Shown here in pieces: positions 4,006 to 27,721 of a DNA stretch of 32,000 bases. The first letter of the stretch is position 1, and each line of letters begins with the position of its first letter. The stretch is from contig NC_010296.1 of NCBI RefSeq assembly GCF_000010625.1, forward strand, positions 2,460,001-2,492,000, given 5' to 3'. Both the position numbers and the translations under genes were made by a program. The notes under the pieces are model-generated. The model did not search any database and was not told the origin of the DNA. It saw only the letters and a list, made by a program, of their open reading frames with translations. This DNA comes from Microcystis aeruginosa NIES-843. Its GTDB lineage: Bacteria; Cyanobacteriota; Cyanobacteriia; Cyanobacteriales; Microcystaceae.

Positions 4006-4835
4006 TCAGGGTGTTGGGGTGTTGGGGTGTTGGGGTGTTGGGGTGTTAGGGTGTTAGGGTGTTAGGGTTTTAGGGTGTTAGGGTGTTAGGGTTTTAGTTG
4101 AAATTCCCCATTCCCCCATTTCCCCATTTCCCCATTTCCCCATTTCCCCACTTCCCCACTTCCCCACTTCCCTGTTTTTGGCCATAAAAAACTAACACTC
4201 GATCGAGAAGGGAGCGAGTTTAGTCAATTTAGTTATTTTACAGTTAATCCCGGGATCAGGCTAAATGCGCTGTAATAAAGATTTACCGTGGGAATCGGTG
4301 CTACAGGTGGCGAATAGGTGTTAGGGTTTTAGGGTGTTAGGGTGTTAGGGTTTTAGTTGAAATTCCCCATTTCCCCATTTCCCCATTTCCCCACTTCCCC
4401 ACTTCCCCACTTCCCTGTTTTTGGCCATAAAAAACTAACACTCGATCGAGAAGGGAGCGAGTTTAGTCAATTTAGTTATTTTACAGTTAATCCCGGGATC
4501 AGGCTAAATGCGCTGTAATAAAGATTTACCGTGGGAATCGGTGCTACAGGTGGCGAATAGGTGTTAGGGTTTTAGGGTGTTAGGGTGTTAGGGTTTTAGT
4601 TGAAATTCCCCATTTCCCCATTCCCCCATTTCCCCATTTCCCCATTTCCCCATTTCCCCACTTCCCCACTTCCCCACTTCCCCACTTCCCTGTTTTTGGC
4701 CATAAAAAACTAACACTCGATCGAGAAGGGAGCGAGTTTAGTCAATTTAGTTATTTTACAGTTAATCCCGGGATCAGGCTAAATGCGCTGTAATAAAGAT
4801 TTACCGTGGGAATCGGTGCTACAGGTGGCAAATAA
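4006..4835. repeat. tandem triplication (units 4006-4317, 4318-4560, 4561-4835) with internal 8-nt microsatellites
   Basis: CGAATAG recurs at 4311 and 4554, giving a 243-bp period. The third unit, 275 bp, merges into the real 3' end of the PHP gene. Each unit contains (GGTGTTAG/GGTTTTAG)n, (CCCCATTT)n, (CCCCACTT)n, a unique ~110-bp core, and a copy of the last 19 codons of ORF 4779..5462. Confidence 0.9.
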
Positions 4836-5462
4836 TTGATATTGACGACTAAGAGCGAGAGCTTGTTCGGTTTCCCGTTGACTCGGTAGCCAGGGTTTGG
4901 GATTGCCGTAGGCATAAAAGGCCTCAATACCATCAATACCCAATTCTACCGCCGCCGCTACTAAATCGGCTGCGGGGCGATGGTAACGAAAGGGATGGGC
5001 GAGAACCACTAAGGCCCCCGCTTGCTGTAAACTGTTAATGACTCTAGAGGCCAAAGCTAGATCTCCTTCCGGTTTGGCTCTTTGCAGATAGGGAGTCAAA
5101 ACGGTATGAGTAGGATCGAAACCATAGCCAAGAATATGCACTTCTGTCTCTAAGAGATTCGCCGTAATTTCTACCCCTGTCCAGAGATGGGGTAGAGAAC
5201 CCTTTAAATGCTCATTTTCTAGCCAAATTTGGGCTTGTCGATAACCTTCGATCGAGTGATGATCAGTAATTGCTAATCCTTTTAGTCCGATGTCTAACGC
5301 TTGTCTCATCAAGTCTTGGGGACTCATTTGACCATCGGAACAATGGGTATGAAGATGGAAATTGTAATGGTAGGGACAACTATCATAGCCGACATTTGCC
5401 CACACCGCTTTCAGGGCGAGGGTATCTTGAGCTAGGGGTGGAATTGTAGCAGAAACGACCAT
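4779..5462 (-). CDS. PHP-domain metal-dependent phosphoesterase (TrpH/YciV-like)
   Basis: 227 aa. PHP motifs HLHTHCSDG, AITDHH, VLAHP and STDSHG. Confidence 0.8.
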   Translation of the reverse strand: MVVSATIPPLAQDTLALKAVWANVGYDSCPYHYNFHLHTHCSDGQMSPQDLMRQALDIGLKGLAITDHHSIEGYRQAQIWLENEHLKGSLPHLWTGVEITANLLETEVHILGYGFDPTHTVLTPYLQRAKPEGDLALASRVINSLQQAGALVVLAHPFRYHRPAADLVAAAVELGIDGIEAFYAYGNPKPWLPSQRETEQALALSRQYQLFATCSTDSHGKSLLQRI

Positions 5463-5531
5463 GCAGTATTGAGGAAATTTCCCAAAGATTACAAATTGTT
5501 AACAATCAGCATAGCAAATACCAAAAAAAAT

Positions 5532-5827
5532 TGGGTAGCTGCTGTTACCACTAATACTAAATCCTGTTTCAAAGGTGTGGGGAAGTGGGGAAGTAGGGAA
5601 GTGGGGAAATGGGGAAATGGGGAAATGGGGGAATGGGGAATTTCAACTATAGCGTTTCCTGTTCGCAAGAGGTACACTATCGATGTTGAAAAGCTTAATT
5701 AGCAAAGGTTTAAGTGTGCCACACAGGTGTGAGAACCGCTATAAAACCCTAACACCCTAACACCCTAACACCCTAACACCCCACACCCCACACCCTGCCC
5801 CCAGGAAAAACTTTTTGCCGCAAACCC
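5532..5827. repeat. mosaic MITE-like repeat with 8-nt and 7-nt STR tracts
   Basis: (GGGGAAGT)n(GGGGAAAT)n at 5576-5650 is the inverted copy of 4094-4172. (CCCTAACA)4(CCCCACA)2 is followed by CCCTGCCCCCAGGAAAAACTTTTTGCCGCAAACCC, the family-A right TIR, ending at 5827. The left boundary is uncertain. Confidence 0.55.
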
Positions 5828-6026
5828 TAACTAGAAAAACTTTTAGTCTTGACTTGACATCCTCGCCGCCGTGAAACGGACGGTGATTCCCAAACCTCAC
5901 GATTTAGGTTTCTGCTTCTTTCCCGAAGGATTTTTCGCACCTGCCTTAACAGATTTACTCTGTTCTGGTCTTATGGTCGCTCTACAGACTGACACCGCAA
6001 GCCCTGCGGCCAAAATATTTTTACTA

Positions 6027-7256
6027 AGCTTTTACGCATTTAAGTTACATTGACAGCATTACCCTTATTTTTAAGTTTTCTACTCCATTTAATAATCAAT
6101 CCCCCTTCATTTAAAAGCTGATTGACTACTTTTTCCAGTTCTTCTTTATTTTCAAATTCTCGATTAGCTATGTATTCTTTAGCGGAATGCCATACTAATT
6201 CTATTAGGTTGTAATCTGGACTATAAGCTGGTAAAAACTCTAGCCTAATATTGGGCAACTCTTTTTCCACCTGCTCAATAACATCTTTCTTTTTGTGATA
6301 ACTAGCATTGTCTAATATGATGATAATTTTCGGTCCTTTTTCTCGAAAATCTTCGGGCAGATTTCCCAAGTTTATCCATTCTTGACGAATCTCTTCATGA
6401 AGTTTCTTTAATTGTTCATGGAAAGTTTCTGAATTTCCTTTTTTGATCATAAAACAGACTCGTTTTTTGTCATTATATCTTAAGGCTCCCATCACATTCA
6501 CCCTTCCTCTTTTTCTTTGTCCATTCACTTTTTTTCGCTTTCCTTTTTTTGTCCAAGCTCTCCTTCTTATTACTCTCAAACTAAATCCACACTCATGAGG
6601 GGCTGTGTGGCGAACCTGCGTCGCCACCTTGAAAGCCCCGTCCCAAAACCATACCTGGATTGACTCTGGCTTTTCTTTAGCCAACCTTAAATATTCATCT
6701 AATTTTTCTTTAAATGCTTTTCTTAATTTCTTGTCTTGCTTATCTTCTAGACTATATTTCGCCCAGATATACACATACTTTTTTCTTCTCAATATTCTTC
6801 TCACTTGCGAGCCACTCAGTTTAATTCCTGTTTCCTTTTCTAGATGCTCTGCTAATCTTGCCGCTGTCCATCTCCCGAATTCATATCCAAATTCCTTCGG
6901 GTCTTCATCAACTATTTTTAATAGTAAATTAATATATTCCTCTGTGGCTTTTTTATGATTTCCATTTTTTCTCCCATCTTCTAGACTTTCTAAATTGTTA
7001 GGATCGCCGTGAACACACCAAGGGGCGACCGTTTTGAGTGAACAGCCAATAAAGTCAGCTATTTCTCGTTGAGTTTTTCCGTCGTTTAGCAAGAGAAACA
7101 TTAAAATTCTTTCCCTAACCTCTGCTCTTTCTTCTTCTTTAAGAGCTTTTTGTAAGTTTTTCTTTTCTTCTAAGTCTAGGAAATCTTTGGCTGGCATAAG
7201 TAGGATTTTTCTAAAATTACTATTTCTATTTTAGGTGGTTTAAGTGCGTTTTAGCT
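6027..7256 (-). mobile_element. IS630-family insertion sequence (#1), 1230 bp, TA target duplication
   Basis: Imperfect ~25-bp TIRs: AGCTTTTACGCATTTAAGTTAC at 6027 and the reverse complement of 7235-7256, AGCTAAAACGCACTTAAACCAC. TA flanks both sides (6025-6026 and 7257-7258). The uninterrupted twin site at 31541-31556 reads TTTTTAC-TG-GCGTTAAT. Confidence 0.85.
6040..7197 (-). CDS. IS630/Tc1-mariner family DDE transposase
   Basis: 385 aa. N-terminal HTH (KTQREIADFIGCSLKTV). DDE_3 region IILDNASYHKK...LPAYSPDYNLIELVWHSAKEY. It carries a 15-aa insertion inside the first catalytic motif (see findings). Confidence 0.85.
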   Translation of the reverse strand: MPAKDFLDLEEKKNLQKALKEEERAEVRERILMFLLLNDGKTQREIADFIGCSLKTVAPWCVHGDPNNLESLEDGRKNGNHKKATEEYINLLLKIVDEDPKEFGYEFGRWTAARLAEHLEKETGIKLSGSQVRRILRRKKYVYIWAKYSLEDKQDKKLRKAFKEKLDEYLRLAKEKPESIQVWFWDGAFKVATQVRHTAPHECGFSLRVIRRRAWTKKGKRKKVNGQRKRGRVNVMGALRYNDKKRVCFMIKKGNSETFHEQLKKLHEEIRQEWINLGNLPEDFREKGPKIIIILDNASYHKKKDVIEQVEKELPNIRLEFLPAYSPDYNLIELVWHSAKEYIANREFENKEELEKVVNQLLNEGGLIIKWSRKLKNKGNAVNVT

Positions 7257-8946
7257 TAGCGTTAATATCTCGGTCATGGTGAGTCCCACAGTCTGGACAG
7301 TCCCATTCTCGAACATTTAACGGCATTTTCAAGGGCAATATACCCGCAATTACTACACCTTTTAGAGCTAGGAAACCATCTATCTATTTCGATGTAATTT
7401 CTCCCATACCAACGGCATTTATAGGCTAATTGTCGGGTGATTTCTCCCCAGCTTACATCAGATATTGCCTGAGATAATTTCGGGTTTTTGACCATATTCT
7501 TGACGGCTAAATTCTCAACCACAATCGTTTGGTTTTCACGAACTAATTGAGTGGTTAGCTTATGTAAATGGTCTTTTCTACTATCGGTGATTTGAGCGTG
7601 AATCTTGGCTACTTTGATTCTTGCTTTTTCCCGATTTTTTGACCCTTTCTGTTTTCTAGAAAGGCTTTTTTGGGCCTTTCGCAGTCTCCGATAATGCTTT
7701 TTAAAATGCTTGGGATTAGACACTTTATCGCCATCGCTGGTAATCACGAGGCTACTAATTCCTAATGGGACTTAAACAAATTTCAAGCCCAAACAAAGCC
7801 TAAACTGGCTTTGTAAGCGGCAAACACATCCCGATTCTCGGTCAGCCACTCAAAGAAACGGAAAGACATCGCTGTCCGAAAAGCTTCCAAGGCTTCCACA
7901 AAAGTGTTTAAAGGTCGATTCGCCCACCGCCTTTGCAATCCCCCAGTTAACTTATGCCACAGGATAAATGTATAGGCACAAAACACCAGGATAAAATGAC
8001 GAAGTAAGCTTCGTTTATCCCTGACTTGATATTCCCTTAACCCTAACCATCCTTTGGCTTCTCGGTAGAATACTTCCACCCAATTTCTTTCGGTGTAAGT
8101 CCTCACTATCCACGAAGCTGTTACTGTATCTGCCTCAACTACATTGGTGATGAAATAGTCCACCTCTGTGGCTTTTTCCATTGAACTTGCATTCATGACG
8201 ATCGCCAAGTTCCTTTCTCCTTCTAGTTGAGATATTTTCGCTCTGAATACCGCTACCCAAACCGTTTTCTCTTTATCTAGATTTAGGGTGATTTTCTCCC
8301 AATCCTTTTCTGATAGGCTTTTTGCTAGTTGCTCAAGCTGGATTGTTTCTTCCACACCCCCTTCTTTTTCAATAATTACTTTTCGATTTTTTGCCAATCC
8401 TCCTAAGTATTTTAGCTTTCTTTCTTCCAGGGCTTTGAGAAAATTTGTGTTGTTGCCATAACCAGCATCTATTAAGACGATTTTCGGTCGATAGCCTCTG
8501 GTTAAGCTCCGGTCAATTAAATCTATCGCTATCTCTGGTTTCTTCTTAAATTCTTTGTCTTCTTTCCCCTCGGCTAAGGAACTAGCCGGTTGATAAATTT
8601 CAATGTCTAGGGGGACACTTTTTTTGCCGTCGTAGAGATGAGTAGTGACGGCGACTATTCCGTTGTCTGTCTTGCCAATTTCTCCTAGGTACTGCCTGCC
8701 AACTCCGGCGGTCAGATTGCCACTTTTTCGATGTCCTGAGTCATCGACAATCAGGGAAAATCCTCGGGGGATTTGCGTCTGGCGGCATTGGTTCATCACT
8801 TGCAACCGACATTCATTCACCTGACGGTCTGACCAAGGAGATTCGGTCAAAAAGTGATGTAATCGGTTATAAACTACTCCGACGGCATTATTGGCCATTT
8901 GAGTGAGGTTTTTCCTCTCACTTTCCCCTAATAATCCTCCTAAATA

Positions 8947-9944
8947 GGGCTGGCTGAATAAATCTAAAAACCTTGTTGGATAAGACTTTTGGACTTTTTT
9001 CCCCTCAAAAAGTACCAGATATGGGAGTGATCAGGGGTAAATTCAGGGACTTTTTCCCTGAAAATTAGGTAATTGACCCCCTCAAAATCGGTAAAACCCC
9101 ACACCCGTTACAGTAGAGCAGGAAGTCGCCTTCCCACCCCCTGCTTCAAAACCGGACTTACGACTTTCGCCGTATCCGGCTCCTGAGTAACTAGGCTACT
9201 GTCATTAGTAGAATAATAATGGGAATTATTATTTCCTTGTCTATTCAACCCTCTTGGCTGTATCCCCACCAGACAAGATTGTTGGTTTTAGGGCGTATAT
9301 GACCGTTGATTGTTGCTTAGACTTCCTAGTTACCCGTCCTTTGTCAGCATATCTTTGATATTACTCAAAGCCTTGGCTTTTAAGGACATCCTCTCCCTCT
9401 ATTGACTTGCGGATGGTTTCCTACTGCCCCGAACGGGCAGAGTCAATCAGGGTTACTTCGTTCCCTATAACCATTGGTTGAACCCTTAGGATGATACTGT
9501 CCACAACAGAGTAACGGGAATGCCTTACTGATAGTGGTATGAGCTATCAGCCCCAACTCTGTTAACTTTTGTTTCGAGCCTGTCAGCCTTTTGGCTCGTG
9601 GGTGTTGACGATGGTTAATTCGTATCTTCGCCCCAGGGCTATCCATAGGTTCTGGCTCAACGGGTTTCTGATTTAGGCTATCAGATACCGCTTTTTTTTT
9701 CCTCGCTCACTACCTCAGATGTACCAAGTCTAAAGCAGCAGGAAATGCCGTCACTCTAGGCATCTAGAGGACAGGACTAAGGTTATTACTAACCCGCACC
9801 TGTAGGGTTATAAAGTTATCAAGGTACTACATTTACCAAGCGGCTAATCCTCTAAACGTCTTACTGTCTAGTTTCTAGCCAACGAATCGCACCACACCCC
9901 ACACCCTACACCCTGCCCCTAGGAAAAACTTTTTCAGCAGACCC
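8947..9944 (-). mobile_element. family-A MITE copy A1 carrying a group II intron (998 bp; ~212 bp without the intron)
   Basis: Ends GGGCTGGCTGAATAAATC... and ...CTTTTTCAGCAGACCC form the TIR GGGTCTGCTGAAAA. Flanked by direct TAAATA at 8941-8946 and 9945-9950. Confidence 0.8.
9107..9892 (-). ncRNA. ORF-less group II intron, copy 1 (786 nt)
   Basis: 5' GUGCGAUUCG at 9892. Domain V GAGCCGGAUACGGCGAAAGUCGUAAGUCCGGUUU at 9182-9149. A domain VI-like helix with a GCGA loop and a bulged A. 3' end ...CUGUAAC at 9107. No RT-like ORF. Excision restores the (CCCCACA)n tract. Confidence 0.8.
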
Positions 9945-10543
9945 TAAATATTGTCTGAAGCCGTTTTTTTGCGCTTCGTTTTTGAAGCAATTGTCAAACC
10001 GCCGACACCATCGGTCAAAGCATGGGGGCATCGCGGCTGGGGTTGTCTCTTTCATCGCTGATCTTTCAACGTAAAGTGCTTATTCTTTAACAATTATACT
10101 CTATTATACTCTTGTTGATCGTTTAAGTCCCACTAGCATCACTGCTGAGAATTTCTGGCTCAACGAGTCCACTTGAATTAGATTCCTGGCGAAATCCAAC
10201 TCAGAGGTGGTTCTCTCCTCAGACTTTCGCGACCTTACAGAAGCCTGTTCTCCTATGCCCTACGATACAGTTCAAAACCTCTAAAATACGGTTCTTCGGT
10301 TTGTCTTATGCAACGTACAGGGTTATAAGGAATGAAACTCTCATAGAGAAAGACATTTGGCGATTTTTGTTAATTGTTTTCGATCTAGAGCGAACTAATC
10401 AATCAAATCTCTTACCAGATAAGGATTTAGTCGATTTATGCCACCCTATTGAACCATACCAAGTAACGAAGAACCTAAAATACTTGGTTTCTCTGGTACT
10501 TGACGCTGAGAATTTTTACCTATAAGTACCTAAGCAAAATTAA

Positions 10544-12229
10544 GGGACTTCCAGAGAATAAAATACCCAACAAAAAAATAGAAAAGTGTTTTTTTGAAAA
10601 AGTAATTATTTTTGTCTAGGAAAACAAAGAGTCTCCCATTATACCATTTTTCTTTATTTGCGTCACAACGAATGAAGGTTTGGCAAGCATTCGAGCGTGG
10701 ATGTCTGTCATGGATTTAGAAATTTGGTATTACAACCTATTTTTCCGAAAAAATAGGCAGCACAAACTCTTATACTTCCGAGCTTTTTCGAGTATAACAA
10801 GGACAAGTTAAAGAATCAAAGACAGTTTTTAGCTAACCATCTTAGTTAACTACAAACTAGGTCTTATCATAATAGATATCAATAAACCATTGTCCCAAAT
10901 CGGGAAAGTCTTGATTCGTTGATTCTGTGAGACGTTCGATTTTTTCTTCGATTTTTTCCATGGCTTTTTTAGTAAGCTTTACTCCTTTTTCATAAGTTTC
11001 AGTAATCAACTTAACAATCGGGTGTTTTCCTTTCCAAGTCATAGTTTGGGCGAATTTCAAAGCCGTTTCGATTTCATCTAAAATACTCCCATTCCAAGGG
11101 TTTTCTAACACAGCCCAGGTTCGTTCAATAGGATTATATTTACTATGGTAAGGGGGATAGTAAGCTAAACGTATATTAACTTGATATTTTTGGGAAAACT
11201 CAACTATACGTTTCATGAACTGAGTTCGTCTCGAATTATTTTCTGGTCCATTATCTTGATTAATTATCAAAGTTTTAATTTTCTCAAAACGAGATTTTTC
11301 CGACTCCCAGAAATCTTCTAATATATCAACAATAAAGTCACTGGTGACTGTGGAGGCAGTGAAATACAAAAACAACTCATCAAATTCTGGAATAAATATT
11401 CCGTAAGGGGTTAGGGTTGTTTTCGGATTAAAATCATGATCGTTTGTTTCGACAGTTATTCTATTCTTACCTCCTCGATCAAATAGTCCAATATTAACAC
11501 GGGCTTTGGCATCCAAACTAAGACGTAACATCGTAGGGTCTTCATCCGCTTCCCGATTAATGTTAGCTAATTCCTCAAAGATTGCCTCGGTTTCTGGAAT
11601 TTTTTTTGAGGTAAAACTTTAGCGACTCTTTTCAGACGATAACCTAAGTTATTTAATTTAACCCGAATAGTTTCCTCGCTCGGTAAATCCTCATCACTGT
11701 ACCCATATTTAGAGATTAATTGCTTTCGGACTTCGGCCGCACTCAGTCTCACATAAAGCCTTTGGCTTTTAAAACTTGGGTCAGTTTGGCTTTGAGAATC
11801 CACTAAACTTTTGATGTTTTCCAATAGAAAAGGTAAATGTTCTTCTGCTTTTTTCCGCCCCTTAGCTGAATGATTATCAACACAAATAATACCTCTTTTT
11901 AGTTCTTTAATTCCTTTACGAATAGTAGTTCGATTCCAGCCTAACTCCTGTGCAGCAAGGGTTTGTCCCCCATAGCCTAATTCTAAGACTGTTTGGGCCA
12001 TGAATCTTCTTTTAGCTGCACCTTTTAATTGAAGTGCAGTTTCACTGAGCAATTTCTTGAGGGAATCAGTTAATTCCATATACACTTACAAAGAAAAACT
12101 TGATTAATAATGTACAGGATTAATTCTACTACAAAATTGGAAGGAGGAGGCAACCATCGACCCCTACCTCCTACACTCCGAGAATGATTATTATTCTTGA
12201 GCATGAATAGTTTATTTTTTGGAAGTCCC
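10544..12229 (-). mobile_element. ISAzo13-like insertion sequence, 1686 bp, 3-bp TAA target duplication
   Basis: TIRs are GGGACTTCCAGAGAATAAA at 10544 and the reverse complement of 12211-12229, GGGACTTCCAAAAAATAAA. TAA is duplicated at 10541-10543 and 12230-12232. Joining the flanks rebuilds GCAAAATTAATTAC of the host MITE. Confidence 0.8.
10857..12085 (-). CDS. ISAzo13-family transposase in two frames (11567-12085 HTH part; 10857-11600 DDE part), joined by a -1 shift on an A8 run
   Basis: ORF1 ends ...LPQKKFQKPRQSLRN*. Re-reading one base back on CAAAAAAAAT (T-run 11600-11607 on the plus strand) gives ...LPQKKIPETEAIFEELANINREADEDPTMLRLSLDAKA..., continuous with ORF2. C-terminal motifs: IINQDNGPEN, YYPPYHSKYNPIERTW. 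Confidence 0.7.
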
Positions 12230-12309
12230 TAATTACACATATCTAACCACCTCTTGCCTCTTGCCTCTTGCCTATCTTCACTAGGAAATTAATTTTGCAC
12301 GACTACTTA

Positions 12310-13306
12310 GGGTTTGCTGAATAAATCTAAAAACCTTGTTGGATAAGACTTTTGGACTTTTTTCCCCTCAAAAAGTACCAGATATGGGAGTGATCAGGGG
12401 TAAATTCAGGGACTTTTTCCCTGAAAATTAGGTAATTGACCCCCTCAAAATCGGTCAAACCCCACACCCGTTACAGTAGAGCAGGAAGTCGCCTTCCCAC
12501 CCCCTGCTTCAAAACCGGACTTACGACTTTCGCCGTATCCGGCTCCTGAGTAACTAGGCTACTGTCATTAGTAGAATAATAATGGGAATTATTATTTCCT
12601 TGTCTATTCAACCCTCTTGGCTGTATCCCCACCAGACAAGATTGTTGGTTTTAGGGCGTATATGACCGTTGATTGTTGCTTAGACTTCCTAGTTACCCGT
12701 CCTTTGTCAGCATATCTTTGATATTACTCAAAGCCTTGGCTTTTAAGGACATCCTCTCCCTCTATTGACTTGCGGATGGTTTCCTACTGCCCCGAACGGG
12801 CAGAGTCAATCAGGGTTACTTCGTTCCCTATAACCATTGGTTGAACCATTAGGATGATACTGTCCACAACAGAGCAACGGGAATGCCTTACTGATAGTGG
12901 TGTAAGCTATCAGCCCCAACTCTGTTAACTTTTGTTTCGAGCCTGTCAGCCTTTTGGCTCGTGGGTGTTGACGATGGTTAATTCGTATCTTCGCCCCAGG
13001 GCTATCCATAAGTTCTGGCTCAACGGGTTTCTGATTTAGGCTATCAGATACCGCTTTTTTTTCCTCGCTCACTACCTCAGATGTACCAAGTCTAAAGCAG
13101 CAGGAAATGCCGTCACTCTAGGCATCTAGAGGACAGGACTAAGGTTATTACTAACCCGCACCTGTAGGGTTATAAAGTTATCAAGGTACTACATTTACCA
13201 AGCGGCTAATCCTCTAAACGTCTTACTGTCTAGTTTCTAGCCAACGAATCGCACCACACCCCACACCCTACACCCTGCCCCTAGGAAAAACTTTTTCAGC
13301 AGACCC
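12310..13306 (-). mobile_element. family-A MITE copy A2 carrying a group II intron (997 bp)
   Basis: Near-identical to 8947-9944. Flanked by direct TACTTA at 12304-12309 and 13307-13312. Confidence 0.8.
12470..13254 (-). ncRNA. ORF-less group II intron, copy 2 (785 nt)
   Basis: Same 5' GUGCG, domain V/VI and 3' end as copy 1. It differs by a handful of substitutions and one T in a homopolymer run. Confidence 0.8.
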
Positions 13307-13569
13307 TACTTAGGAGCATTCCCCTAGAGAACCCCATAACTCTAGTTTTCAAGGTGCGTTCATCGGTTGATGACTGGGTTTTTTAAGCGGTTGCTTACCC
13401 GGCCCCCTATTCTTAATATCATACATCAGATCAAGTCGCCCTCAAAGGGCGAGGCTTTAAACCCAATTTTTTGGTAATATATCAATTAACTGGCAAGATG
13501 GGCATGAGCAAGTTAACCCCTTTGGCTGTTAACCGTCCCGTCAAGCTGCTCTAGGGTAAAGATAATCCT

Positions 13570-21273: not shown

Positions 21274-22357
21274 AGTACCTAGGCAAAATTAATTACATAC
21301 TCGCCTCCAAAATTGTCCAGCACTTTTTTAACGTAAGCGAGGAGGCTCTTTCGGTCTTTATAGGCGCTAAATTCAATCCATTCATATTTTAAAAATCTCC
21401 ATAATATTTCAATTAAATTTAAATGAGGTGAATAAGTGGGCAACCAAAATATTTTCAAGTTTTTCTTTTCCCATTCCTCAAGTTTCTCCATAAATGCCTC
21501 GCTGGTATGAATGGAAGCTTGGTCAATTATTATGACAGTTTTTTTCTGTATATTTTGGCAATATTTATCCAGAAAATTAATAACTATCTCGCTAGTAACC
21601 GTTCCGACCTGTGTCTCATAAAATAATTGATTATCTCGTTTCATTATTCCTAAAATATTTAGTCTTTTACCTTCAATTGGTGGTAACTTTATCGTGGTTT
21701 TTTCTTCTTGCCAAGCGTCAGGAATACAAGGCTTTGAATCCCCTCCCATTTCATCCAAATATCCTATCTCAATCTCTCCTCTTTTTTCCTGTTTTTTTAG
21801 TTCTTCTAAAATAGGTAGTTTGACCTCAAGCTCCCACTCATCAGGGGTTTTGGCGACCCCTCTTCTCACCCTTTTCCACCTCATGTTGATTTTTTTTATG
21901 AGTCTTTTTATCGTGTCTTTGCTTACGGTTAATTTCCCTTCTTCTACAATTTTTATCTGGATTTTTTTTAAGCTTTTCGGTTCTTCTTTTACCCAGTCAA
22001 TAACTTGTTGACCTTGTGCTTCTGTCAATTTAGGTTTTCTCCCTCTTCCTCGACGATTATAAAAACCAATTAGTTTTCTATCTTCCCAGGCCGTCAACCA
22101 ATTATAGATGGTCTTTCTCGTAACTCCAAATATTCCGCTCAATTCTTCTATCGTGGTTCCCTGAAAACTTAAGAGTATACATTTCGCTCGCTCTCTTACT
22201 TGATGATGTTTACTAGCTCGATAAATTCTCTCTAGCATTTTCTGGCTCTCGGGGTTTAGGTCTCTAATCAATCTCATTGTATTTTCCTGCTGCTTCGTTT
22301 TTTTATGTATTATACTTCTTAATTTTTTATTTGGGTAATTAATTTTGCATGACTACT
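21274..22357 (-). mobile_element. IS630-family insertion sequence (#2), 1084 bp, TA-flanked
   Basis: TIRs are AGTACCTAGGCAAAATTAATTAC at 21274 and the reverse complement of the right end, AGTAGTCATGCAAAATTAATTAC. TA at 21272-21273 and 22358-22359. Confidence 0.85.
21279..22277 (-). CDS. IS630/Tc1-mariner family DDE transposase
   Basis: 332 aa. HTH (TIEELSGIFGVTRKTIYNW). GYLDEMG (first D). IIIDQASIHTS (second D). LPTYSPHLNLIEILWRFLK. Confidence 0.85.
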   Translation of the reverse strand: MRLIRDLNPESQKMLERIYRASKHHQVRERAKCILLSFQGTTIEELSGIFGVTRKTIYNWLTAWEDRKLIGFYNRRGRGRKPKLTEAQGQQVIDWVKEEPKSLKKIQIKIVEEGKLTVSKDTIKRLIKKINMRWKRVRRGVAKTPDEWELEVKLPILEELKKQEKRGEIEIGYLDEMGGDSKPCIPDAWQEEKTTIKLPPIEGKRLNILGIMKRDNQLFYETQVGTVTSEIVINFLDKYCQNIQKKTVIIIDQASIHTSEAFMEKLEEWEKKNLKIFWLPTYSPHLNLIEILWRFLKYEWIEFSAYKDRKSLLAYVKKVLDNFGGEYVINFA

Positions 22358-22561: not shown

Positions 22562-23560
22562 CTATCCCAAAACGATCAAATCGCGCAGGGATTGAATTTC
22601 CTCGGTTTGTAAACGCGCCCCAAAAGTAGAAACCACCCGGGCAGCCGCTAGAGAAGCGAGATTTCCCGCTCCTTTGTAACCCATACCGTGGGTAATACCG
22701 TAGAGAAACGCACCTGCATACATATCCCCCGCACCGACGGTATCGATCGCCTGTACGGGATGGGGGTCAATTTCCAGGAGATTTTCGCCATCATAGATCA
22801 AAGAACCATTGGCACCCCGGGTGATAGCGAATCCTTTGGCAATGGTTTTAAAATAGGCGATCGCTGACTCAATTTCCTCGCTGCCGGAAATAGTCAAAGC
22901 TTCCGACTCATTAGCGAAAACGAAATCTAACCCCGTTCCGATCATTTCCAGTAATCCCTCCCGGAAGAAGATCGCCATATTGGGATCCGACAGGGATAAA
23001 GCGGTTTTGACTCCAGCAGCCTGAGCAATTTCTCGCCCTTTAATAGCGGCAGCTTTGGCAGTGGGAGAGGTGACGAGATAACCTTCGAGATAGAGATAAT
23101 CGGCATTAACGATCGCTGAAGGGACTAATTCCCGTTCGGAAATTTCCCCGGTGATGCCGAGAAAAGTATTCATGGTGCGATCGGCATCGGGAGTCACAAA
23201 AACTAGACATTTTCCCGTGATTCCCACCTCTTTTTCGCCGCCGTGTTCATTGGTATGCAAACCACAGGCGCGCAGATCTTGCAGATAAAACTTGCCCAAT
23301 TCGTCATTGCCCACTTTACAGGAATAGAAACCTCTACCCCCCAACTGAGCGATCGCTACTAGGGTATTCGCCGCCGATCCGCCACCGCTGCGTTTACAAT
23401 CAAGAGCCAATTTTTCCATCAACTGGGTTTGACGATTTTCGTCCACCAGCGTCATCACTCCTTTATCGATGCCCAATTCTTGCAGTAATTCAGGAGAGAC
23501 TTGAAATTCCATATCGACGAGCGCGTTACCGATCCCATAAACGTTGTATTGTTTGCCCAT
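22562..23560 (-). CDS. PfkB-family carbohydrate/nucleoside kinase (adenosine kinase-like)
   Basis: 332 aa. N-terminal [18 protein letters not shown], and the C-terminal catalytic motif [16 protein letters not shown]. Confidence 0.8.
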
Positions 23561-24085: not shown

Positions 24086-24772
24086 ATGAAAACAGCCCTC
24101 ATTACCGGTGCTTCCACTGGTATCGGTGTCGTCTTTGCCCGTCAACTTGCCCAACGGCAAATGGAGCTAATTTTAGTCGCTAGATCCAGAGATAAACTAG
24201 AACAATTAGCAGCGGAATTAGAGGAACAATACGGGGTAAAAGTGACAGTTATCGTTCAAGATCTGACCGTTGCCGGGGCGGGAAAGCTTGTATATGATAC
24301 GATGAACCAAAAAGGAATCAACGTTGATTTACTGGTCAATAATGCCGGTTTTGGTGATTATGGTGCTTTTAGCGAGCAGGATTTAGCCCGACAGTTAGAA
24401 ATGATCCAGTTAAATAATCTGGTATTGGTGGAATTAAGCCACTATTTTCTCCGTCCGATGCTTGCTGGTGCTGGGGGGGCAATTATCAATGTTGCTTCCA
24501 TTGCTGGGTTTCAACCGCTGCCCTATCTTTCCGTCTATGCGGCGACAAAAGCTTTTGTCCTCAGTTTTAGCGAGTCTCTCTGGGCAGAAAATAAAGACAA
24601 AGGCGTTGAAATCCTTGCTCTTTGCCCCGGTCCGACGGAATCGAATTTTTTTGAGGTGGCCCGATTTCCCAGTGCCTTTATGGGCAAAAACGGCCGGTTA
24701 GATTCGGCGGAAGTGGTAGTACAAGAGGCTTTAACTGCCTTGGCAAACAAGCGCCCCAACGTGGTAAGCTAA
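24086..24772 (+). CDS. SDR-family oxidoreductase whose native 3' end (24856-24875 + 25311-25386) is displaced by two MITE insertions
   Basis: TGASTGIG cofactor motif, NNAG, catalytic S...YAATKAF. The current ORF ends in MITE sequence (..NVV-S*). Removing both MITEs and one copy of each duplication gives ...NVVAGKFANKIIVNLPRFLPRSWIVSLIEKQFKL*, about 260 aa. Confidence 0.85.
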   Translation: MKTALITGASTGIGVVFARQLAQRQMELILVARSRDKLEQLAAELEEQYGVKVTVIVQDLTVAGAGKLVYDTMNQKGINVDLLVNNAGFGDYGAFSEQDLARQLEMIQLNNLVLVELSHYFLRPMLAGAGGAIINVASIAGFQPLPYLSVYAATKAFVLSFSESLWAENKDKGVEILALCPGPTESNFFEVARFPSAFMGKNGRLDSAEVVVQEALTALANKRPNVVS

Positions 24773-25401: not shown

Positions 25402-26088
25402 TTAGAGCAATTGCTGATAGGATTTTAAGGGAATACCTGTCCGGTTTCTCACTTCGATCGCCGAACGATAGACACCGTTTTTTTCTCTTTCGGCGACAAT
25501 TTTATCAGCCAGGGAAAAGTCAAGACCGAGATTGACTAATTCCGCAACGGAGTAGTAGTTTAAACAACGCCAAGAAACGTCAACTTCTTGGCGAATATCG
25601 TAGGCAAAGATAATCAAAGGTTCCAATTTTTTGAGATAATTTTCTGGTAAACCAGCCAGGAAGTGTAATTCTTCTAAATGGGTAAAAATATGTCCTTCAT
25701 TACGGACAGAAACGATATCATTGGCATAGACAATCGGCAACCCTAATTTATAAACCAGATCGTTGGTGGAACAGCTGTTAATATCAATTTTTTCGAGAGG
25801 AGAGGATGACTGTCTGGAATCGGTTCTATTTGCCGAAGCTATTGGATGGGAATTAAGCTGTTGACGGATGTATAAACCCAGGCCGATTTGGGCAAACCAA
25901 ATTACGATAAAAGACTCTTGTGTAAGGAAAATAAGGGAGATAATTGTCAAAGCAATGCCGACGGATAACCAGCTTTGGTTATTAGTTTTTTTGCCAGCAT
26001 TAGCAATGGCAAGCCCACCGAAAACTGGGACTAAGGATAGCCAGATCCACTCGGAAGATTCGGGAGGGCGAGGAGAGAGATTAGACAT
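25402..26088 (-). CDS. membrane protein with C-terminal degenerate helix-hairpin-helix (ComEA-like) repeats
   Basis: 228 aa. About three N-terminal hydrophobic segments. Two C-terminal units resemble HhH modules (INSCSTNDLVYKLGLP...; SVAELVNLGLDFSLADKIVAEREKNGVYRSAIEVRNRTGIPLKSY). Confidence 0.55.
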   Translation of the reverse strand: MSNLSPRPPESSEWIWLSLVPVFGGLAIANAGKKTNNQSWLSVGIALTIISLIFLTQESFIVIWFAQIGLGLYIRQQLNSHPIASANRTDSRQSSSPLEKIDINSCSTNDLVYKLGLPIVYANDIVSVRNEGHIFTHLEELHFLAGLPENYLKKLEPLIIFAYDIRQEVDVSWRCLNYYSVAELVNLGLDFSLADKIVAEREKNGVYRSAIEVRNRTGIPLKSYQQLL

Positions 26089-27195: not shown

Positions 27196-27410
27196 GGGTC
27201 TGCTGAATAAATCTAAAAACCTTGTTGGATAAGACTTTTGGACTTTTTTCCCCTCAAAAAGTGCCAGCCATTGCGGGGATCGGGGGGAAAATTCCTGGAC
27301 TTTTTCCCAGAAAATTAGGTAGTTGACCACCTGAAAATCGATAAAACCCCACACCCCACACCCCACACCCCACACCCTGCCACCACCGAAAAGCTTTTTG
27401 CCGCAAACCC
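27196..27410. mobile_element. family-A MITE copy A3 (215 bp, intron-free), 6-bp TAATTG duplication
   Basis: GGGTCTGCTGAATAAATC...(CCCCACA)4...GCTTTTTGCCGCAAACCC. TAATTG at 27190-27195 and 27411-27416. Confidence 0.8.
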
Positions 27411-27721
27411 TAATTGTCCCACTGAAGGTCAATCGGGGTAGAGAGTAAGATCCCGGGGCTGCCCGCGCATTTAATACTAAATCCGTTGAGTATAGGCTAC
27501 TTATGAGGATAGGCAAGAGGCAAGAGGCAAAAGGAGGAATAGAGAATCAGTCTTTAATAACTGGATTTAGTATAAATTGCCTGTTGAGATGAAACAAGAG
27601 GCAACAGTAAAGGGATTGGGAGAGATTCAGCTAATCTAAGGAGAGGCGATTAAAATGCCTCTTAGCTTAAAACCCCACACCCTGCCCCCGGGAAAAACTT
27701 TTTCAGCACACCCTATATATT

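Follow-up and report, generated by a model that had tools for sequence, protein, structure and literature searches.

The stretch of DNA analysed here (contig NC_010296.1 of Microcystis aeruginosa NIES-843, positions 2,460,001 to 2,492,000; 32,000 nt, hereafter the window) carries on its minus strand a group II intron without an open reading frame (ORF) for a protein of its own, located in the tandem-heptamer core of a miniature transposable element with inverted repeats (MITE). This MITE with its intron, named composite 1, splits a transposase gene of the IS701 family (DDE_5), the N-terminal 37 codons of which lie at 10055-9945 and the remainder at 8940-7783. Excising composite 1 together with one copy of its target site duplication (TSD) restores an intact 422-codon ORF, and copy 1 is therefore an intron within a MITE within an insertion sequence (IS). 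The split transposase fits ISMae34 of Kaneko et al., as judged by family and size only, and the same insertion of composite 1 into it was present in two ENA metagenome contigs (L141 and L143; loci collected for comparison are cited by L number). The intron is oriented in the sense of the transposase gene, but splicing could not rescue the transposase, since 218 nt of MITE plus TSD would stay in the transcript.

Composite 2, of the same kind, lies at the edge of another inserted element. The first-pass annotation of this DNA had correctly recognised the intron of composite 1, but missed both the second copy (12470-13254, minus strand) and the interruption of the IS701-type gene. The features are collected in Table 1.

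Table 1. Features of the intron, its host elements and its targets in the window. EBS, exon-binding site; IBS, intron-binding site; MFE, minimum free energy; DI, domain I.
Feature	Window position	Strand	Intron position	Remarks
Composite 1 (MITE with intron copy 1)	8947..9944	-		998 bp, GGG...CCC; left arm 9944-9893, right arm 9106-8947
TSD of composite 1, TATTTA	left copy 9945..9950; right copy 8941-8946	-		
Group II intron copy 1, ORF-less	9107..9892	-		786 nt; Rfam RF00029, fold, DI homology
5' splice-site consensus GUGCG	9888..9892	-		fits GUGYG
5' exon, three heptamers GGGTGTA GGGTGTG GGGTGTG	9893..9913	-		MITE core; holds IBS2 and IBS1
Domain I		-	~1-433	approximate, MFE fold
EBS2 CCCACG	9597..9602	-	291-296	within CAACACCCACG
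EBS1 CAUACC	9536..9541	-	352-357	9-nt terminal loop of hairpin CUGAUAG/CUAUCAG
Domain II		-	~436-493	approximate, MFE fold
Domain III		-	~501-552	approximate, MFE fold
Domain IV		-	~553-708	approximate, MFE fold; no ORF
Domain V	9148..9181	-	712-745	GAGCCGGAUACGGCGAAAGUCGUAAGUCCGGUUU; RF00029
Domain VI	9110..9144	-	749-783	Rfam alignment and MFE fold
Composite 2 (MITE with intron copy 2)	12310..13306	-		TSD TAAGTA at 13312-13307 and 12309-12304
Group II intron copy 2, ORF-less	12470..13254	-		785 nt; Rfam 55 bits at 12470-12547
Intron-free MITE	27196..27412	-		arms 87% identical to copy 1; TSD CAATTA
Unoccupied heptamer tract, perfect target	5775..5795	-		in partial MITE left arm 5758-5829
IS701-family (DDE_5) transposase gene, interrupted by composite 1	7783..10055	-		Pfam PF13546, E 4.5e-35

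Boundaries and Ribozyme Domains of the Intron

Copy 1 starts with GUGCGAUUCG at 9892 and terminates with CUGUAAC at 9107, exactly the ends proposed by the first-pass annotation, and the GUGCG start and the ...UAAC end (3' AY) were invariant across 11 of 11 full-length copies. In a search of the whole window, the Rfam model RF00029 (Intron_gpII, domains V-VI) matched 9107-9184 on the minus strand with 55 bits (gathering threshold 40, E = 2e-8), covering model positions 1-77 end to end. This significant covariance-model match bears out the textbook domain V described earlier from the letters, a 34-nt element with the AGC triad, a 9-bp lower helix, an AA bulge, a 5-bp upper helix and a GAAA tetraloop. 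In domain VI, for which an unpaired A at 7-8 nt from the intron end had been claimed, the Rfam alignment and the MFE fold both place the branch-point candidate, a bulged A, at 9114, 8 nt before the intron terminus. The 786-nt RNA folded with an MFE of -259.5 kcal/mol (z = -5.8 against shuffled controls), and domains V and VI were recovered in the fold. Homology extends to domain I, the first 443 nt being 64% identical (E 4e-23) to the 5' part of a plasmid intron of Fremyella diplosiphon (L138) that encodes a reverse transcriptase (RT) and whose start, GTGCGATTCGTTAGCTAGAAACTAG, is almost identical to that of the Microcystis intron.

A D1-D4 model of Rfam, RF01999 (D1D4-2), gave 24.5 bits at 9678-9746, below its threshold of 36, and the model of domains V-VI was the only one to pass. 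A chance or degenerate fragment resembling domains V and VI, with no functional intron around it, would give such a result. That reading is effectively refuted by a domain I homologous to that of an RT-encoding intron, by the EBS loops described below, the GUGCG start, the strongly non-random fold and the same boundaries in 11 full-length copies, and we regard its probability as practically nil.

The longest sense ORFs have 67 and 88 codons. The first-pass annotation had correctly described the 67-codon frame as the longest of 9107-9892 and as free of RT or maturase motifs; it had no NCBIfam match, and tblastn with the Fremyella RT revealed no similarity in any Microcystis intron copy. We conclude that 9107-9892 on the minus strand is a genuine group II intron without its own gene, a result confirmed here, and that its ribozyme has every expected part: the 5' GUGCG, both EBS1 and EBS2 within domain I, domain V, and the bulged A of domain VI.

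The ribozyme looks to be of the chloroplast-like (IIB-type) class on indirect grounds: the best additional domain V matches were the plastid ndhA/ndhB models, the relatives are all cyanobacterial and the related RT has RT, maturase and HNH domains. Chloroplast-like (CL) types dominate among the group II introns of cyanobacteria (PMC8919778). The features of class IIC were not found, as domain V has the full 34 nt, EBS2 is present and the upstream exon is a linear tandem repeat.

Exon Pairing and the Heptamer Target

The EBS were assigned by an exhaustive pairing search of the intron against the exon, combined with the MFE fold. EBS1 (CAUACC) is complementary to IBS1 (GGUGUG, exon -6 to -1) and EBS2 (CCCACG) to IBS2 (UGUGGG, exon -11 to -6), and the two jointly match the exon sequence UGUGGGGUGUG. 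The EBS candidate of the first-pass annotation contains EBS2 (9602-9597), while EBS1 is located elsewhere (9541-9536). Two observations support these assignments. Firstly, the corresponding loops of the Fremyella intron fit its own exon, which differs from and is unrelated to the Microcystis heptamer exon: the loop aligned with EBS1 is UUCUG, complementary to CAGAA (-5 to -1), and the segment aligned with EBS2 is GCAUA, complementary to UAUGC (-9 to -5). Secondly, EBS1 of copy 2 is UACACC, with two transitions relative to CAUACC, both of which retain pairing with GGUGUG through G-U. Hence UGUGGGGUGUG, followed across the insertion point by G, is the target to which RNA pairing would guide the intron, and it is present in every pair of adjacent GGGGTGT units. 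The folded domain I, its homology to the Fremyella intron and the EBS pairing with the GGGUGUG exon thus agree with what the first-pass annotation had proposed to check. Intron positions 85-92 (ACCCUACA) also pair perfectly, over 8 bp, with exon -18 to -11, but as an additional guide this pairing had no support in the Fremyella homologue and was set aside.

The 14-mer of the heptamer repeat occurs 18 times in the window against 0.11 expected. Removing the intron from composite 1 restores a continuous heptamer tract, as had been claimed, here of five units, like that of the empty MITE at 27196-27412, in whose uninterrupted five-unit core three 12-nt targets are unoccupied. Each 5' exon known ends in ...GGGTGTG, and all 3' exons start with G, nearly always GGG, and are otherwise unrelated. 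The 3' exon is the MITE right arm in the composite copies, GGGAGATTAAAT (also given as GGGAGATT) in L128, GGGGGGGTTAGG in L131, GCCCCCCC (GCCCCC) in L132, GGGTTTAGTT in L133 and GGGAAGGAAA in L136; in L134, L135, L137 and L142 further heptamers follow and then non-MITE sequence.

Several of these copies lie outside the MITE. In L127/L128, ~14-15 heptamers form a free-standing tract without MITE arms, and the intron lies at its end. In the complete genome of M. viridis NIES-102 (AP019314.1, locus L139), one tract carries two introns 21 nt apart, and a paralogous unit ~170 nt downstream, with the same flanks, has an uninterrupted tract of ~10 heptamers; this is a pair of filled and empty paralogous sites in one genome. 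In L142 the intron is within a different MITE-like element with divergent arms. From the free-standing tracts, the NIES-102 pair and L142 it follows that the target is the microsatellite itself, of which the MITE core is only one location. The earlier claim that the homing site is a microsatellite is thereby strengthened, whereas the nesting in a MITE core holds for copy 1 but reflects an association with the heptamer repeat and not with the MITE as such.

Some further observations concern the tracts and the introns in them. With four or more units, (GGGGTGT)n fits the canonical G-quadruplex motif and resembles telomeric repeats, for example at 27343-27377 in the window and 8003-8072 in L139. 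Heptamer tracts of this kind recall the short tandemly repeated repetitive (STRR) heptamers of heterocystous cyanobacteria. In L139, the first of the two introns (4730-7032) is disrupted twice: a palindrome of 87 nt has entered it at ~4901-4987, and an IS encoding a DDE_Tnp_1 transposase at ~5081-6488, so that the introns themselves are landing pads for other elements. At 889/890 of the ENA metagenome contig L141, two introns join directly, CTGTAAC being followed by GTGCGATT with no exon between them. Such a junction is possible in principle, as the first base of a resident intron is the G that is the sole need on the 3' side, but it may be an assembly artefact, and the right flank of the contig looks chimeric.

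The Intron Family in Microcystis

Copy 2 is 99.2% identical to copy 1, differing at six positions, two of them in EBS1. The flanking genes mark the host as Microcystis. Other copies were found by an exact domain V scan of metagenome contigs and by look-ups of the spurious ORFs inside the intron (the 67-aa ORF and homologues of the 88-aa ORF), the NIES-102 locus L139 being among those found by look-up. The 11 full-length copies are 99-100% identical and occupy at least nine contexts, all with exactly the same termini; six of them equal the 784-nt consensus, and the others differ from it at 4-8 of 784 positions. The family is young and multi-copy in Microcystis. An exact domain V scan of viral contigs gave no match, and a degenerate domain V pattern scan of genome contigs, used as a source of relatives only, gave at least 120 matches from many phyla, with no Microcystis among the matches listed.

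One copy, L130 (1-112), has the part of domain IV upstream of domain V replaced by a short abundant repeat with a spurious ORF that has 65 homologous clusters, two of them in NIES-843. This divergent domain IV was considered as the C-terminus of an intron-encoded protein, and the idea was dropped, as its 47-aa frame matches 65 tiny hypothetical ORFs across Microcystis genomes. Contig breaks at intron positions 663-677 were likewise discarded as a boundary between ORF-less and ORF-containing forms, being explained by k-mer overhang at a repeat.

The MITE and the Composite Elements

Without the intron, the MITE is a non-coding element of 212 bp (GGG...CCC) with terminal inverted repeats TAGGGTCTGCTGAA and TTCAGCCAGCCCTA. 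At least 10 copies were present in ~190 kb of Microcystis sequence, and the 6-bp TSDs were perfect in five of seven copies (TATTTA, TAAGTA, CAATTA, TAAATA and TACTTA). Kaneko et al. (2008) described MaeMITEa, of 219 bp and with 240 copies in NIES-843, and the present MITE fits a MaeMITEa-like element, compared by size and abundance alone.

Composites 1 and 2 are 99.1% identical over 1,002 bp. Relative to copy 1, arm identity is 98-100% for copy 2, ~96% for L129, a third intron-bearing MITE (a 13-nt deletion set aside), and 83-90% for seven empty MITEs. Both composites of the window have the intron in the same register, three units upstream and 1.5 downstream, and share the same GGGTGTA variant unit, yet their 6-bp TSDs differ. 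The near-identical arms, the shared register and variant unit and the different TSDs argue for a single homing event followed by transposition of the 998-bp composite as a unit, which we consider probable.

Two independent homings into closely related MITEs, with the composite never moving as a unit, would be an alternative origin of the two copies, and three observations are in keeping with it: the intron clearly inserts alone into heptamer tracts, L142 is a separate insertion in a different MITE-like element, and the intron of the free-standing tract L128 is as near to copy 1 as copy 2 is, in a star-like tree that leaves copies 1 and 2 ungrouped. It does not readily account for arms that are far closer between the two composites than to any of the seven empty MITEs, nor for the identical register and variant unit, and no empty MITE of the copy-1 arm subtype was found in the ~190 kb of Microcystis sequence. 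We therefore hold independent homing to be doubtful, although its probability is appreciable, and prefer transposition of the composite.

Compared with strains L001, L003 and L005, mobile elements nested between 13311 and 10524 add ~2.8 kb to the window, and composite 2 is absent from the orthologous place in all three. The other strains compared yielded no clean empty site for copy 2; the region is a nest of further insertions.

Relatives Outside Microcystis and the Source of Reverse Transcriptase

In the Fremyella intron, the encoded RT is of the group II RT/maturase kind (TIGR04416, 357 bits) and has an HNH domain. Against this full intron of ~2.4 kb, the Microcystis element consists of ~597 nt of 5' ribozyme and ~190 nt of 3' ribozyme, and appears to belong to a cyanobacterial intron lineage, as a member with its ORF deleted. 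The start GTGCGATTCGTT is common to copy 1, the Fremyella intron and the relatives L059 and L122. ORF-less relatives of ~830-880 nt occur in Okeania (L059), a marine cyanobacterium (L122) and Hormoscilla (L008, L049, L081 and L116), and ORF-less derivatives of the lineage seem to be widespread among cyanobacterial genera. Some of these ORF-less relatives share both the start GTGCGATTCGTT and the end CGACTGTAAC, with very divergent interiors and non-repetitive exons. The related introns of other cyanobacteria sit outside repeats.

A full-length relative encoding an RT, the search for which the first-pass annotation had recommended, was thus found in Fremyella but not in the Microcystis loci collected. 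In a tblastn search of plasmids with the Fremyella RT, enterobacteria dominated the matches listed, and no Microcystis RT was obtained. For NIES-843 itself, seven group II intron RTs have been reported, six of them 97-99% identical and with an HNH domain (PMC8934634). On this literature count a trans-acting RT source in Microcystis is plausible, and we infer that the RT for splicing and mobility would be supplied in trans.

A Proposed Model of Intron Mobility

Considering the above results, we propose that an ORF-less intron family, mobilised in trans, homes into (GGGGTGT)n, with the probable addition of a composite layer in which the MITE carries the intron; we believe this model to be likely. 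The intron would be transcribed and spliced with the RT/maturase of an ORF-containing group II intron elsewhere in the genome, giving a spliced exon junction that should read GGGGUGUG joined to GGGUGUG. The lariat ribonucleoprotein (RNP) would then reverse-splice into the G-rich strand of (GGGGTGT)n, between ...GGGGTGTG and G, and the inserted intron would be copied to DNA. Heptamer tracts in the cores of abundant MITEs and in other repeats would offer many harmless targets. Once inside a MITE, the intron could be moved by the MITE's transposase as part of the 998-bp composite, and such moves would give the two copies of the window, the first within the IS701-type transposase gene, the second at the border of a further inserted element. 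Retromobility by reverse splicing is suggested by the precise termini, the lack of a TSD, the EBS-matching 5' exon, the minimal need on the 3' side and established group II biology.

A different reading takes the intron as a dead ribozyme passenger that spread purely as DNA, without reverse transcription: MITE transposition would have acted together with homologous recombination or gene conversion, and with unequal crossing-over among heptamer tracts. Heptamer homology does flank many copies, the tandem copies with a 21-nt spacer (NIES-102, L144) could come from unequal crossing-over, joint movement of the flanking DNA would account for the conservation of a 21-nt 5' exon, and no RT was found in the Microcystis loci collected. 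However, several 3' exons (those of L128, L131, L132, L133 and L136) share 1-3 nt only, too little for homologous recombination, and every junction falls precisely at the ends of the intron. The exon is moreover matched by EBS1 and EBS2, with the EBS1 changes of copy 2 retaining the pairing, and identical copies lie at different sites with all catalytic motifs intact. A passenger intron is, in our judgement, very improbable.

The 5' exon deserves separate consideration. The composite lineage, L128 and both NIES-102 copies all have the same 21-mer, GGGTGTAGGGTGTGGGGTGTG, before the intron, with an A at -15. This would be explained if the mobile unit were the intron plus ~21 nt of upstream heptamers, with complementary DNA (cDNA) of the unspliced transcript annealing to tracts and GGG microhomology priming the 3' side, without reverse splicing; the 3' side indeed requires merely G or GGG. 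Reverse splicing guided by EBS-IBS pairing accounts for the exact junctions without a new mechanism, however, and the upstream units of L129 and L142 are variant. In group II introns, the intron-encoded protein recognises distal 5' exon positions, and such recognition could by itself select the A at -15. We judge this exon-carrying route to be very unlikely. Similarly, we see only a small chance of a link between intron and heptamer that goes beyond target choice, in which the unit carries ~21 nt of 5'-exon heptamers or the RNP reads or extends the repeat. If it were true, a bacterial group II retroelement would integrate by annealing to a telomere-like, G-quadruplex-prone (GGGGTGT)n repeat and perhaps help to propagate it, a route distinct from classical EBS-guided reverse splicing.

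Several points weigh against the proposed trans-mobilised homing. The A at -15 is found in 3-4 of four independent sites, against 25% (13/52) of A-type units in empty tracts, and the conservation of the 5' exon extends beyond the 11-nt IBS, more than EBS pairing explains; protein recognition of the distal exon, extra RNA-DNA pairing (intron 85-92) or co-transfer of the exon are possible reasons. Unoccupied perfect targets are numerous, two tracts of the window among them, from which it follows that insertion either is inefficient or depends on something beyond the 12-nt target. The tblastn search with the Fremyella RT revealed no RT-encoding relative in the Microcystis loci collected, and the best 120 homologues of that RT were all from Nostocales or Oscillatoriales, with none from Microcystis. 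ORF remnants in domain IV were not detected either, although tblastn with the Fremyella RT is a weak test, as the true parent RT may differ. Covariation within the family offered too few substitutions to test the pairings, six changes keeping and 10 breaking the pair at MFE-paired positions. Splicing with lariat formation is predicted from the sequence alone, and the argument for composite transposition is based on a small sample of MITEs.

Comparison With Known Systems

Bacterial group II introns are usually low in copy number, as the specific homing site of each soon fills. The known escapes from target saturation are divergence of target specificity, as in Thermosynechococcus elongatus, and the use of repeated structural motifs, as in class C introns. 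The Microcystis family would add a third, in which ordinary EBS1/EBS2 pairing is addressed to a microsatellite that offers several registers per tract. The tracts are multiplied by a MITE in hundreds of copies, which places an RNA-level retroelement atop a DNA-level transposon that itself lands in insertion sequences.

Of the systems described so far, the TeI3/TeI4 introns of T. elongatus come closest, where ORF-less TeI3 introns depend for splicing and mobility on 'driver' RTs acting in trans, encoded by related ORF-containing introns (TeI4) (Mohr, Ghanem and Lambowitz, 2010, PMC2882425). Both systems are cyanobacterial, with ORF-less introns that insert into other mobile elements (PMC2882425), and the Microcystis intron, like those of the TeI3 type, lacks an RT/maturase ORF and has near-identical copies at different sites with matching IBS. 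Proliferation in T. elongatus was accompanied by EBS divergence into six target families, which avoids target saturation (PMC2882425), whereas in Microcystis a single EBS set is directed at a multi-copy tandem heptamer. TeI3 introns also retain recognisable ORF remnants, and none were detected in the Microcystis intron; T. elongatus has known driver RTs, while no cognate RT intron was found for the intron of Microcystis, a mesophile.

Introns of class IIC, including those that target attC, insert after repeated structural motifs, namely Rho-independent terminators and integron attC sites. They resemble the present family in using a recurrent, mostly non-coding genomic motif as insertion site, with many harmless targets. 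In contrast, they recognise a DNA stem-loop plus short IBS1/IBS3 and have no EBS2 and a shortened domain V, whereas the Microcystis intron has a 34-nt domain V and reads a linear repeat by base pairing through EBS1 and EBS2. The natural homing site of RmInt1 of Sinorhizobium meliloti is in the insertion sequence ISRm2011-2, so there too the site lies within a multi-copy DNA transposon, and the copy number of the intron tracks that of its host element, on which it can ride along. RmInt1 differs in having its own RT and in targeting a unique IS sequence, while the ORF-less Microcystis intron targets a microsatellite that also occurs outside the transposon.

Trichodesmium has twintrons, introns inside introns in protein-coding genes, for which sequential splicing was demonstrated (PMC4649490). 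The two NIES-102 copies 21 nt apart and the L141 junction, if real, are likewise cyanobacterial introns adjoining others, but the Microcystis copies, whose splicing is a prediction, lie side by side in non-coding repeats. A functional likeness exists with TRAS and SART of Bombyx mori, non-long terminal repeat (non-LTR) retrotransposons specific for telomere repeats, which also insert at a fixed position in a short G-rich tandem repeat. Their specificity derives from a protein endonuclease, they have no ribozyme and they are eukaryotic, and no homology is implied beyond the general relationship of group II and non-LTR RTs; any bearing of the Microcystis intron on how retroelements relate to G-rich terminal repeats is by analogy only.

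The literature searched contained neither a group II intron that homes into tandem heptamers or MITE cores nor ORF-less group II introns of Microcystis, and the Microcystis genome paper (Kaneko et al.) makes no mention of group II introns. What differs from the T. elongatus system is the route to high copy number, one EBS set aimed at a tandem repeat that is multiplied by a MITE, together with the probable hitch-hiking of the intron on that MITE. The family provides an ORF-less intron that occurs naturally, is compact (784 nt) and seems to be active at present, and whose target is simple and can be predicted. It could be of use in studies of trans-acting RTs and for following how plastic the genome of a harmful-bloom organism is, and might also serve as a scaffold for gene targeting.

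Neighbouring Elements in the Window

The region 10133-13311, upstream of a Ser/Thr kinase gene, is a strain-specific insertion nest relative to L001, L003 and L005. It contains composite 2, a split transposase of the ISAZ013 type (10857-11531 and 11567-12085) and an insert of ~190 bp between 10288 and 10475; then comes the IS701-type element bearing composite 1. Directly downstream of the latter, at 7274-7747 on the minus strand, is a truncated IS605-type OrfB (TnpB-like) ORF with a Cas12f1-like TNB domain. A second heptamer microsatellite, (GGCAAGA)n or its complement (CCTCTTG)n, adjoins composite 2 (12258-12285) and the empty 27-kb MITE (27515-27545), and looks like part of another repeated element. 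Two pairs of ORFs have equal lengths, 332 aa twice at 21279-22277 and 22562-23560 and 228 aa twice at 24086-24772 and 25402-26088, and are probably duplicated IS copies. Finally, a tRNA-Thr (UGU) gene occupies 1856-1927 on the minus strand, with a heptamer-bearing MITE fragment adjoining it at 1956-2002 on the plus strand.

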